Shown: one piece after another, positions 14,070 through 43,580 of the stretch
How positions within the stretch are numbered: the stretch's first letter is position 1
Layout of the letters: each line of letters starts with the position of its first letter
Assembly: GCF_055900595.2 (NCBI RefSeq)
Contig: NZ_CM148325.1
Direction: 5' to 3' (one strand)
Length of the DNA stretch: 64,000 nucleotides
Position numbers and translations under genes: made by a program
Notes under the pieces: generated by a model
Seen by the model: the letters and a program-made list of their open reading frames with translations, nothing else
Database searches by the model: none
Told to the model about the DNA's origin: nothing

Positions 14070-14125
14070 TTTGTCGGACGTAGGTCGGATAAGGCGTTCT
14101 TGCCGCATCCGACAAAACATCCGGC
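14070..14125. repeat. REP (repetitive extragenic palindromic) element
   Basis: GTAGGTCGGATAAGGCGTT...GCCGCATCCGACA matches the REP/BIME consensus family. Confidence 0.6.
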
Positions 14126-18734: not shown

Positions 18735-18820
18735 TGGTAGGCCTGATAAGACGCGTGAGCGTCGCATCAGGCATCGTTCACCATTGCCGGATGCGGCATT
18801 AACGCCTTATCCGGCCACTT
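18735..18820. repeat. REP/BIME elements (two copies, inverted)
   Basis: GCCTGATAAGACGCG...GCGTCGCATCAGGC and GCCGGATGCGGC...GCCTTATCCGGCC between ypfH and ypfN. Confidence 0.6.
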
Positions 18821-26055: not shown

Positions 26056-26260
26056 ACGCGTCTTCTCCACATAAAATCATTAATGTTCCAGTTTGCTGAA
26101 ATGCAATTTAGTCAGTGATGGGATTATTTGATCTGCCACAGTTTATAGCGAAATAGTGACTTATTCTGGGCACATGAACATTGCCGATTCCCCTGTAAGT
26201 CGGGTAATAACAACACTCATATAAAGAATAAGGTTTTTACAACCAAAAAAGAAGGTCGTT

Positions 26261-29008: not shown

Positions 29009-30052
29009 ATGCGCTATCGCATTTTTCTTCTCTTTTTTTTCGCTTTATTGCCGACGTCTTTGGTGTGGGCGGCACCAGCGCAACGGGCATTTTCCGACTG
29101 GCAGGTCACCTGTAATAATCAAAATTTCTGTGTGGCGCGCAATACGGGCAATCATAACGGACTGGTGATGACCCTGAGCCGCAGCGCCGGGGCGCGTACC
29201 GATGCCGTTTTACGTATTGAGCGCGGCGGGTTGAAGTCGCCGGATGCGTCAGAAGGGGAGATAGCGCCACGGCTGCTGTTAGATGGCGAGCCGTTGGCGT
29301 TAAGTGGTGACAAGTGGCGGATTTCACCATGGTTATTAGTAACCGATGATACGACAACCATCACCGCGTTTTTGCAGATGATTCAGGAAGGGAAAGCGAT
29401 CACCTTACGCGACGGCGATCAGACCATTTCACTGAGTGGCTTAAAAGCAGCGTTGTTGTTTATTGATGCCCAGCAAAAGCGCCTCGGCAGTGAAACTGCG
29501 TGGATCAAGAAAGGGGACGAACCGCCGCTCAGCGTACCGCCAGCGCCTGCGCTAAAAGAGGTCGCGGTAGTGAACCCGACGCCGACCCCACTTTCTCGTG
29601 AAGAACGTAACGATTTGCTGGATTACGGTAACTGGCGGATGAATGGTCTGCGCTGTTCGCTTGATCCGTTGCGTCGTGAAGTGAATGTGACTGCGCTGAC
29701 CGACGATAAAGCATTAATGATGATTAGCTGTGAAGCAGGCGCGTATAACACCATTGATCTTGCGTGGATTGTGTCGCGTAAAAAGCCACTGGCCTCGCGC
29801 CCGGTACGGTTGCGTTTACCGTTCAACAACGGTCAGGAGACCAATGAACTGGAACTGATGAACGCAACATTCGATGAAAAATCGCGTGAACTGGTGACCT
29901 TAGCGAAAGGGCGCGGATTAAGCGATTGTGGCATTCAGGCGCGCTGGCGCTTTGACGGTCAGCGTTTTCGCCTGGTGCGTTACGCTGCAGAACCCACCTG
30001 CGATAACTGGCATGGACCAGACGCCTGGCCCACGTTGTGGATCACCCGTTAA
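29009..30052 (+). CDS. ypfG: Secreted DUF1176-family protein
   Basis: 347 aa with a signal peptide (MRYRIFLLFFFALLPTSLVWAAPA). Confidence 0.88.
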   Translation: MRYRIFLLFFFALLPTSLVWAAPAQRAFSDWQVTCNNQNFCVARNTGNHNGLVMTLSRSAGARTDAVLRIERGGLKSPDASEGEIAPRLLLDGEPLALSGDKWRISPWLLVTDDTTTITAFLQMIQEGKAITLRDGDQTISLSGLKAALLFIDAQQKRLGSETAWIKKGDEPPLSVPPAPALKEVAVVNPTPTPLSREERNDLLDYGNWRMNGLRCSLDPLRREVNVTALTDDKALMMISCEAGAYNTIDLAWIVSRKKPLASRPVRLRLPFNNGQETNELELMNATFDEKSRELVTLAKGRGLSDCGIQARWRFDGQRFRLVRYAAEPTCDNWHGPDAWPTLWITR

Positions 30053-30059
30053 ATATAAT

Positions 30060-30180
30060 AGCGGGAACATGTCAGCCTGATAAGACGCGTCAGGCCGGAT
30101 AAGACGCGGTAGGCCGGATAAGACGCGTCAGCGTCGCATCCGGCAATCAGCATCCGGCAATCAGCATCCGGCGATCACCA
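30060..30180. repeat. REP/BIME cluster with embedded 14-nt tandem repeats
   Basis: Three REP-like units (CTGATAAGACGCGTCAGGCCGGATAAGACGCG...), then three tandem copies of GCATCCGGC(A/G)ATCA at about 30136..30177. Confidence 0.65.
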
Positions 30181-32184
30181 TCAGGCACCTTTCACTCCCA
30201 GTACCTTATGCGCTTTTGCCACAATATTCTCGGCGGTAAAGCCAAAGAACGGGAACAGCTTATCCGCAGGAGCAGATTCCCCATAACCCGTCATCCCGAC
30301 AATTGCCCCTTTCAGACCAACATATTTGTACCAGTAATCGGCGATGCCTGCTTCCACCGCCACGCGAGCCGCAACGTTAGAAGACAACACAGACTCCCGA
30401 TATTCCTCATCCTGGGCGTCGAAAATATCGGTCGAGGGCAGGGAAACTACGCGTACATTGCGACCTTCTCCCGCTAATTTCTCCGCTGCTTGCAAGGTGA
30501 TTTCCATCTCTGAACCAGTGGCAATCAAAATAATATCCGGCTTGCCGCCGCTGTCTTTCAACACATAACCACCGCGGGCAATCTCTTTTACCTGATCTGG
30601 CGTACGTTCCACCTGGGCCAGATTCTGTCTTGAGAGGATCAGCGCCGTCGGCCCGTTGTGACGCTCGACCGCCAGCTTCCAGCCCACCGCAGCTTCCACC
30701 TGATCACACGGTCGCCAGGTGCTGAAATTCGGCGTTAAGCGCAGACTTGCAAGTTGTTCAACCGCCTGGTGCGTCGGACCATCCTCCCCCAGACCAATTG
30801 AGTCGTGGGTATAAACCATAATTTGCCGCGCTTTCATCAGTGCCGCCATCCGCGCGGCGTTACGGGCGTATTCAACAAACATCAGGAACGTCGCGGTATA
30901 CGGCACAAAGCCGCCGTGGTGCGCGATGCCGTTGGCGATGGCGGTCATGCCAAATTCACGTACCCCGTAGTGAATATAATTCCCCGCTGGATCTTCCTTC
31001 AGCGACACAGAACCTTTCCAGATGGTGAGGTTGCTGGGAGCCAGATCCGCCGAACCGCCAAGCAGTTCAGGCAGCATGGGCCCGTAAGCGTTAAGCGTAT
31101 TTTGCGAAGCCTTACGAGTAGCGATTTTCGCCGGATTCGCCTGCAACTCATTGATATATTTCTGCGTCGTTTTTTCCCAGTCTTTTGGTAAACCACCGCT
31201 CATCCGGCGAGTAAACTCTTCTGCCAGTTGCGGATGAGCCTTTTTATACGCGGCAAACTTCTCATTCCAGCTCTGCTGTGCTTTTTCGCCTTTTTCGCGA
31301 GCGTCCCAGGCGTGATAAATCTCTTTGGGGATCTCAAATGGCGGATGATGCCAGCCCAGTTTTTGCCGTGCCAATGCCACTTCTTCTTCCCCCAGTGGTG
31401 CGCCATGCGCCTCTTCCTTACCTGCTTTATTCGGCGAACCAAAGCCAATCACCGTACGGCAGATAATCAACGACGGCTTATCTTTTACGCTTTGCGCTTC
31501 AAGAATCGCTTCCTTCACCGCCTGCGGATCGTGACCGTCGATTTCATGGATCACATGCCAGTGATAGGCTTCAAAACGTTTTGCCGTATCGTCGGTAAAC
31601 CAGCCTTCGGTTTCACCGTCGATGGAAATACCATTGTGATCGTAAAAACCAATCAGCTTGCCCAGCCCCAGCGTGCCCGCCAGCGAACAGACTTCGTGAG
31701 AAATACCTTCCATCAGGCAGCCGTCGCCCATAAACACATAGGTGAAGTGATCGATAATTTCATGATCCGGCTGGTTAAACTGCGCCGCTAGTGTACGTTC
31801 TGCTATCGCCAGTCCGACCGCGTTCGCCAAACCTTGTCCAAGTGGACCGGTGGTGGTTTCAACACCAGGCGTATAGCCAATCTCCGGGTGACCAGGGGTT
31901 TTCGAATGCAACTGACGGAAGTTCTTCAGCTCTTCCAGCGGCAGGTCGTAACCGGTCAGATGAAGCAAACTGTAGAGCAGCATCGACGCGTGACCGTTGG
32001 AGAGAATAAAGCGGTCGCGATCATACCAGGTTGGATCGGTGGGGTTATGTTTAAGAAAATCGTTCCACAGCACTTCGGCAATATCAGCCATGCCCATCGG
32101 CGCGCCGGGATGACCAGAATTGGCTTTTTGTACCGCATCCATACTGAGCGCGCGAATCGCATTGGCAAGGTCTTTTCGGGACAT
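30181..32184 (-). CDS. tktB: Transketolase 2
   Basis: 667 aa from [31 protein letters not shown]...; ORF trimmed from the upstream in-frame ATG at 32247. Confidence 0.95.
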
Positions 32185-32203: not shown

Positions 32204-33154
32204 TTATAGTTTGACGGCAAGAAGATCTTCCAGTTTGCGTTGATCAACGGCGAACAGGCGGATGCCTTCAGAGAGTTTTTCTACCGCCATTGCATCCTGA
32301 TTGTGCTCCCAACGGAACTCCGCTTCGCTCATCGGGGCTGGGCGTGGGAACGTCTGAGAAGGCGGGATTAATTTACGCACTACTGGAGAAACTTTTTCCT
32401 GCAGCTCCTTCAGCAAATTCGGCGCAATAGTCAGTCGATCGCAGCCGGTTAAGGCGAGGATTTGTTCGGTGCGACGGAAGCTCGCGCCCATTACAATGGT
32501 TTCGTAGTGGTGTTGCTTATAGTAGTCGTAGATATTGCGCACTGACTTAACGCCCGGATCTTCTTCCACCACATACGGGTCCATCGGCTTACGCGCCTGA
32601 TACCAGTCATAAATACGCCCGACAAACGGCGAAATCAGAAAAACGCCTGCTTCTGCACAGGCCCGCGCCTGAGCAAAAGAAAACAGTAGCGTCAGGTTGC
32701 AGTTAATACCTTCTTTTTCCAGTTCTTCTGCCGCGCGAATTCCTTCCCAGGTTGAAGCCAGCTTGATCAGAATACGTGATTTCTCAACGCCTTGTTGCTG
32801 ATACAAGTCCACCAAATGGCGCGCCTTCTCAATACTTTTTTCTTTATCAAAAGAGAGGCGTGCATCAACTTCTGTTGACACGCGACCGGGTACGATTTTG
32901 AGAATTTCAGTACCGAAATTGACCGCCAGTTTGTCACATGCAGCGACCACCTGTTGTTCCTGGGTCTTGCCATTTTTTTTACCCCAGGCGATAGCATCGT
33001 CTATTAAATGCTCATATTGTGATAATCCGGCAGCCTTGAGTAACAGCGAAGGATTGGTGGTGGCATCCTGGGGATGATAATGGCGAATGGACTCAATATC
33101 GCCGCTGTCTGCCACGACAGTGGTGAACTGTTTGATGCCGTCTAACTCGTTCAT
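32204..33154 (-). CDS. talA: Transaldolase A
   Basis: 316 aa [23 protein letters not shown]...; forms the talA-tktB operon. Confidence 0.95.

Positions 33155-43496: not shown

Positions 43497-43580
<84 letters not shown>

Follow-up and report, generated by a model that had tools for sequence, protein, structure and literature searches.

The closest described systems are REPs and the larger elements built from them. A REP is an imperfect, GC-rich palindrome with a GTAG head and a mismatch inside the stem. In BIMEs a REP and an inverted REP (iREP) alternate in orientation and are separated by linkers (PMC8266576). REPs at the 3' end of a transcript stabilise the upstream mRNA, and talA-tktB is among the REP-bearing transcripts (PMC10100675, PMC12306157). 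The site downstream of tktB is listed as REP179a-c on the talA-tktB transcript (PMC10100675); no repeat feature is annotated at this site in NC_000913.3, and the REP179 label therefore rests on PMC10100675. Other systems of relevance are naRNA4 (REP325, Rfam RF02564), which is a REP-derived structured RNA, the VNTRs or minisatellites of MLVA, and the contingency (phase-variation) loci, where the repeats are placed in a reading frame or promoter and changes in unit number turn expression on or off.

The window, by which is meant the whole 64 kb stretch of DNA that was analysed, carries a locus between ypfG and tktB with features of several of these systems. It shares with REPs the GTAG head, the imperfect GC-rich palindrome with an internal mismatch, the extragenic position at an operon 3' end between convergent genes and the membership of a dispersed high-copy family. 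It differs from them in that only one palindrome is present, the extra 'REPs' being half-arms in the same orientation, placed head to tail with a period of 14 nt on one side and 19 nt on the other, and in that the outermost right arm belongs to the tktB reading frame and holds its stop. Like BIMEs the locus consists of REP material that is clustered, intergenic and variable between strains, and in E. whittamii and in some Citrobacter a true BIME takes this position; the alternation of REP and inverted REP with linkers by which BIMEs are defined is, however, absent here. As in MLVA VNTRs the units are short, perfect and head to tail, vary stepwise from 1 to 7 copies, reach equal sizes on different backgrounds and change faster than flanking SNPs, but the diversity is low (~78% at two copies) and there are two complementary arrays that are able to pair. 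To our knowledge the ypfG-tktB array is absent from the standard E. coli MLVA sets, and a full-text literature search found no paper on ypfG together with a tandem repeat. The only Rfam match to the region was to naRNA4, covering the REP palindrome, and with 39.2 and 28.6 bits it fell below the gathering score of 59.5; with no match above threshold in Rfam, this is a resemblance through shared REP sequence and not membership.

The locus is best explained, with good confidence, as a single GTAG-type REP hairpin in which both half-arms have been amplified in tandem, the 14-nt array being a VNTR or minisatellite built from half a REP. The right (R) array gains and loses whole units and the left (L) array does so independently, most likely through replication slippage between identical neighbouring units, with length polymorphism among lineages as the result. 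In RNA the repeats would give the talA-tktB message, and on the other strand the ypfG message, a stable hairpin at its end, which by analogy with other 3' REPs may block 3' exonucleases or attenuate transcription. Extra arms would mainly add alternative pairing registers or further hairpin tiers.

Table 1. Features of the ypfG-tktB region, in positions of the window
Feature	Position	Strand	Description
ypfG (DUF1176 protein)	29009..30052	+	convergent with tktB; stop 18 nt before the L array
L array, three 18/19-nt units	30071..30126	.	GTCAG/GGTAG head + GCC(T/G)GATAAGACGC
L unit, outermost	30071-30088		GTCAG-CCTGATAAGACGC
L unit, middle	30089-30107		GTCAG-GCCGGATAAGACGC
L unit, innermost	30108-30126		GGTAG-GCCGGATAAGACGC
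Sole complete REP palindrome	30109..30144	+	GTAG head, left arm GCCGGATAAGACGC, loop GTCA, right arm GCGTCGCATCCGGC
Centre between the arrays	30127-30135		9 nt, GTCAGCGTC
R array, three 14-nt units	30136..30177	.	GCATCCGGC(A/G)ATCA; read from the sequence and TRF
Degenerate fourth right arm	30178..30191	.	CCATCAGGCACCTT; holds the tktB stop and last sense codons
tktB (transketolase 2) CDS	30181..32184	-	stop codon inside the degenerate fourth arm
talA (transaldolase A)	32204..33154	-	NF009001, 655 bits; upstream gene of the talA-tktB operon

TIGR00232 identifies the minus-strand open reading frame with its end at 30181 as a transketolase (1082 bits), its stop reads TCA on the plus strand (30181-30183), transaldolase A precedes it and the K-12 homologue adjoining ypfG is annotated as tktB (b2465), which upholds the gene assignment and the coordinates given in the preliminary description of this DNA. 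The arrays are thus located in the 3' UTR of the talA-tktB operon. The spacer between the convergent genes is 131 bp long and reads, on the plus strand, as 18 nt of unique sequence, three L units, the centre and three R units, followed by the degenerate fourth unit within tktB. Both tktB and ypfG (stop at 30050-30052) end before the array in their own direction, so that changes in unit number leave the two reading frames intact. In this respect the array does not have the position of a contingency locus.

The R array is found by TRF with a period of 14, 3.7 copies, 89% matches and a score of 83 (span 30136-30187), and the three tandem copies that had been reported at 30136-30177 were thus recovered. 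The units follow in the order GCATCCGGCAATCA, GCATCCGGCAATCA, GCATCCGGCGATCA; the first two are identical and the third differs by one base. Each unit is made up of the 3' half-arm of a REP, with the core ATCCGGC, and a 5-nt spacer, and reads TGAT(T/C)GCCGGATGC in the sense of tktB. The 0.7 copy that TRF adds beyond the third unit is the degenerate fourth arm, up to 30187. The near-identical units are placed head to tail, as in a VNTR. No other array in the 64 kb window has at least three copies at 90% identity or more with a period of 7-40. With the same requirements for copies and identity, 100 first-order Markov resamples gave, over 34 periods, one array in all, and a chance origin of the R array can be excluded. 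The neighbouring L array (30071-30131 in TRF, period 19, 3.3 copies, score 94) has units that each correspond to a 5' half-arm of a REP. These two arrays are the only ones in the whole window with a TRF score above 42.

The inverted repeat of the REP lies at 30113-30126 and 30131-30144; its two 14-nt arms show 86% complementarity and are separated by 4 nt. The GTAG head (30109-30112) is found directly 5' of GCCGGATAAGACGC in the innermost L unit, and the outer two left units have GTCAG in its place. The folds show GGAU/AUCC stems broken by unpaired bases, as expected of an imperfect palindrome of 20-50 nt with a mismatch in the stem. The innermost L unit, the centre and the first R unit together make up one canonical REP. 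The array had been described as contiguous with a REP cluster; the contact with REP sequence is real, but the array does not merely adjoin it, the first unit being itself the right arm of the palindrome. Because there is a single palindrome, with every left-arm core on the plus strand and every right-arm core on the minus strand, the R unit is the 3' half-arm of one REP. The inner-stem half GCGTC is absent from every R unit, and the R units can therefore not be REPs on their own. The layout of amplified left and right arms around one REP is what characterizes the 14-nt array as a half-REP minisatellite. Two other origins of the extra arms were considered, namely separate insertions of complete REPs and, as a general explanation, complete REPs nested within REPs; the former was ruled out and the latter rejected, both since no R unit contains GCGTC. 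An annotation of 'three REPs' at this site should be read with this in mind, as one REP with duplicated half-arms. REP hairpins can thus evolve by amplification of single arms and not only by insertion or loss of whole REPs or BIMEs.

The REP itself belongs to a dispersed, high-copy and mostly intergenic family. The window contains 55 REP cores, against 19.1 +/- 4.6 in shuffled sequences, and the median number of places matched by a query containing the REP was 13 per E. coli genome. Further REPs in the window are a single one at 14084-14113 and BIME-like alternating pairs at 18741-18815 and 43497-43579; no tandem arrays of half-arms were found in these three. A weak sigma-70-like match (TTATCA, 17 nt, TATTAT; 9 of 12 positions) is present within the L array on the minus strand at 30055-30083 and is probably due to chance.

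The copy number of the units was compared among complete E. coli genomes. A 431-bp query spanning the spacer matched in 5,425 of 5,426 genomes, in only 10 of them with an identity of at least 99%, and the spans across the records were 378, 379, 397, 398, 405, 412, 431 and 440 bp. Strains differ in steps of whole units, in agreement with a VNTR, with 1, 2, 3, 4, 5, 6 or 7 copies of the R unit and 0-3 copies of the L unit; all R numbers were read directly in fetched loci, apart from 6, which was read from alignment. According to BLAST coverage and identity bands, as opposed to extracted sequences, and with an uncertainty of ~10-20 genomes per class, ~78% of the 5,425 genomes have two R units and ~15% have one, beside a different repeat element. 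With the same uncertainty, three units are found in ~86 genomes, four in ~25-33, at least four in at most 103 and at least five in 70 (64 with five, 5 with six and 1 with seven). With exact units required, at least 189 of the 5,425 genomes have three R units or more; a looser criterion gives 205. Three left units are present in ~24 genomes and the combination of three L and three R units seen in the window in at most 10. The counts were obtained with short queries anchored in the array, and the query for five units or more carried 33 nt of unique left flank. Identity bands from BLAST searches with long flanks were not accepted for counting alleles; these alignments break into pieces of high identity wherever a gap reaches 28 nt, and the bands are also confounded by the high-identity partial matches of the genomes with a box C repeat described below.

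When alleles are written as L by R units, the most common one is 2x2 (~3,087 genomes, including K-12, BL21 and O157:H7), and 1x2 is found in ~1,150 genomes, among them the B2 strain E2348/69. Less common are 2x3 (O121, O145:H28 and others), 2x4 (strain 744), 2x5 (ES3 and many others), 2x7 (8GC), 3x2 (O111 RM9322, BS-04 and LF3-1), 3x3 (the window and Z0117EC0005) and 3x4 (DAM and EC42405). In 831 genomes, represented by strain HS-02 (locus L009, 446-550), the REP and the left array are replaced by a GC-rich dispersed repeat (...CCCCTCGCCCCTCTGGGGAGAGGGTTAGGGTGAGGGGA...), which we take to be box C, and one R unit is retained. The median number of places matched by this repeat is 7 per genome. 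Escherichia sp. E1V33 (L017) has the same allele, from which it follows that the polymorphism is either old or transferred. The span is uniform within serotypes, with 397 bp in all O157:H7 and 412 bp in O121:H19 and O145:H28.

The units that have multiplied are only the interior ones of A type, and the G-type unit stays in terminal position next to tktB. Arrays of three R units are found on at least four haplotype backgrounds, that is, the K-12-like A,A,A form (31 genomes), O121, the lineage with GTAGACC in the left unit and the lineage of the window. The GTAGACC lineage comprises alleles with 3, 4, 5, 6 and 7 R units; among those with 3, 4, 5 and 7 R units and 2 or 3 L units there are only 0-1 SNPs in ~900 bp of flank. 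Between the K-12-like 2x2, 2x3 and 3x2 alleles there are no SNPs in the flank, and the lineage of the window holds both 3x3 and 3x4 alleles. Changes in unit number have thus recurred on nearly identical haplotypes and are faster than point substitution in the flanks, which is the behaviour of a VNTR.

The pattern of variation points to recurrent gain and loss in steps of one unit, most simply by replication slippage. It is the amplification of interior units, the independent origins, the near-zero number of flanking SNPs and the occurrence of 3x3 together with 3x4 in the window's lineage that argue for slippage as the mechanism of the copy-number change. The preliminary description had anticipated variation in copy number among strains of the kind caused by slippage and had named comparison across E. 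coli genomes as the way to see it. A range of 1-7 units with 0-1 SNPs in ~900 bp of flank agrees with this, the mechanism being read from the pattern, and the copy number is far from invariant, with three units or more in at least 189 of the 5,425 genomes. The array is not hypermutable in the sense of contingency loci, since two units are the state of ~78% of the genomes and most alleles follow lineages. The suggestion of a polymorphism for strain typing held in part: the site is polymorphic, but the typing power is modest to weak, with a Simpson diversity of ~0.32 for R-unit number. The half-REP array after tktB is an ordinary, previously undescribed length polymorphism of modest typing value, which can mark lineages in some clades of E. 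coli, for example the GTAGACC lineage.

A first alternative is that the copy number is under selection as a tuner of expression, where the number and balance of arms would set the distance from stem to stop and thereby how strongly termination is hindered and the amount of TktB lowered. The position of the array is in keeping with such an effect, as the first full R arm begins 9 nt past the tktB stop and the degenerate arm contains the stop itself, with the last codons and the stop (GGT GCC TGA) in REP-arm-like sequence. REPs less than 16 nt from a stop codon have been reported to lower translation (Liang et al. 2015, as summarised in PMC12306157). The stop-overlapping arm is moreover old, being found in C. 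youngae, E. whittamii and divergent E. coli. The folding of the region also bears on the question. Nested three-tier hairpins were predicted both in the tktB sense (MFE -62.1 kcal/mol, z = -3.0) and in the ypfG sense (MFE -60.2 kcal/mol, z = -4.1). These are thermodynamic predictions with modest z-scores (-3 to -4), and they take account of neither the ribosome nor the actual 3' end of the transcript. The REP palindrome forms the innermost tier of the MFE structures. The degenerate fourth arm has the core ATCAGGC, the complement of the core GCCTGAT in the outermost left unit, and pairs with 30075-30081 in the predicted fold; by this match the predicted hairpin of the 3x3 allele starts in the last tktB codons. 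The hairpin of the window allele is predicted to sequester the tktB stop codon, with a pairing probability of 1.00, and the predicted values for the other E. coli REP alleles range from 0.03 to 0.62. A simple terminator scan of the region found no intrinsic terminator with a T-run.

Selection of this kind is nevertheless unlikely. The numbers of left and right units are unbalanced (1x2, 2x2 to 2x7 and 3x2 to 3x4), the 2x2 allele dominates and the rare alleles resemble neutral lineage markers. The 831 genomes that have exchanged the REP for a different repeat and retain one unit argue against a tight requirement. The unbalanced arm numbers and the prevalence of a single allele speak for neutrality of most of the copy-number variation, and a functional effect, if there is one, would come from an altered geometry of the hairpin that the REP forms in the talA-tktB 3' UTR. 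A related and more far-reaching proposal, which we regard as improbable, is that the complementary arrays constitute a heritable hairpin of several tiers that can be adjusted stepwise, with a base that reaches the tktB stop, so that changes in arm number would shift the register of the stem and tune TktB or mRNA stability. If this were true the array would be a 3'-UTR counterpart of a contingency locus. Should arm number affect termination or mRNA decay, the natural alleles (1-7 by 0-3 units) would make up a test set for the reported rule that translation is depressed by REPs within 15 nt of a stop.

The second alternative, quite improbable, is that the half-arms were duplicated by the REP-associated tyrosine transposase (TnpA-REP/RAYT) and not by slippage, through cutting of single-stranded REP between C and T and rejoining. 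TnpA-Ec does cleave CT sites located 5' or 3' of the REP structure, between the C and the T on the strand that bears GTAG, and can rejoin strands, but it is inactive on substrates with only an iREP (PMC8266576). The junction between left units reads ...GACGCT-GTAG... in the common alleles, with a CT directly 5' of the GTAG guide, and because this junction carries such a site the transposase may have had a part in the duplication of left units. The junctions between the left units of the window (GACGC-GTCAG and GACGC-GGTAG) are without CT, and there is no CT in the 14-nt R unit on the strand that bears GTAG; the sole CT within 30071-30177 is inside the GCCTGAT core. The strict series of 2, 3, 4, 5, 6 and 7 identical interior units on one haplotype also speaks against the transposase, a stepwise series of this kind being the classic signature of slippage. 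A transposase origin of the 14-nt array is thus disfavoured relative to slippage between the R units.

It is very unlikely that the array merely belongs to a canonical BIME and that the variation reflects gain or loss of whole BIME units, although the region is derived from REP sequence and three REPs, REP179a-c, are listed there in the literature (PMC10100675). True pairs of an iREP and a REP do exist at the site in E. whittamii (L016), E. coli SCPM-O-B-8794 (L018) and C. amalonaticus (L023), but the allele of the L018 type is absent from all 5,426 RefSeq complete genomes. The window and all fetched RefSeq E. coli alleles with a REP at the ypfG-tktB site have one complete palindrome with the arms sorted by strand, and no iREP was found in these alleles. 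The periods of 14 and 19 nt are those of half-arms, compared with ~35-40 nt for whole REPs, and the R units are without the inner-stem GCGTC. What is listed as 'three REPs' in K-12 corresponds to a single palindrome with two half-arms on its left side and two on its right. As the alternation of REP and iREP is absent, the site is not a canonical BIME, and the reservation in the preliminary description that the array might turn out to be one does not apply to these half-arms of one REP in the same orientation.

That the differences between genomes are artefacts of assembly or sequencing in a repetitive, hairpin-forming stretch is hardly credible, even if seven units were found in a single genome (8GC) and other rare alleles once or a few times, considering that the arrays span only 14-98 bp, well within single reads, that tens of independent complete genomes, produced in different laboratories, share the same alleles (64 with five units, ~86 with three and five with six) and that serotype lineages are internally consistent in span.

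A scan for YpfG across species representatives gave 80 loci, and the 14-nt array was not found outside E. coli among them. A REP with GCCTGAT and ATCAGGC cores, whose right arm lies over the tktB stop (GCC TGA TG...), is present in SCPM-O-B-8794 (L018), a divergent E. coli, and in C. youngae CCUG 30791 (L030), the latter observation being from one genome. In E. whittamii the stop-overlapping arm is duplicated once, with a period of 15 nt, and in Citrobacter genomes without a REP at the site the ends of ypfG and tktB overlap. The bases that correspond to the degenerate fourth unit are the right arm of a REP in L018 and L030, and the fourth unit is therefore homologous to an old stop-overlapping REP arm. 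Judged by the sequences compared, the array appears to have grown on the loop-proximal side of this old arm. The outermost left unit of the window retains the matching GCCTGAT core, and the outermost tier in the window, formed by GCCTGAT and the ATCAGGC at the stop, may possibly be the older stop-overlapping REP, with the rest of the structure grown inside its loop. A gene can thus take its last codons and its stop from a REP arm. The C-terminus of TktB in E. coli (...KVLGVKGA) is three residues longer than that in Citrobacter (...KVLNA).

Some minor observations were made on the ypfG side of the spacer. The plus strand folds into a small hairpin, CCCG...CGGG, around the ypfG stop (30045-30065); its complementary ends are kept in other E. 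coli REP alleles and the loop differs. In some genomes, such as that of strain 23CRST013 (L010, 1-1500), ypfG is not adjacent to tktB; instead a box C remnant is bordered by DUF4942 and DUF957 genes and by a frameshifted DUF5983 gene, which suggests that an island insertion or a rearrangement has taken place at the ypfG-tktB spacer. Queries with ypfG-tktB also matched a few plasmid records. The 50,946-bp record NZ_CP195334.1, from cattle strain 11, contains at 26169-26203 a fragment of a ypfG-like DUF1176 gene that matches the end of the chromosomal ypfG.
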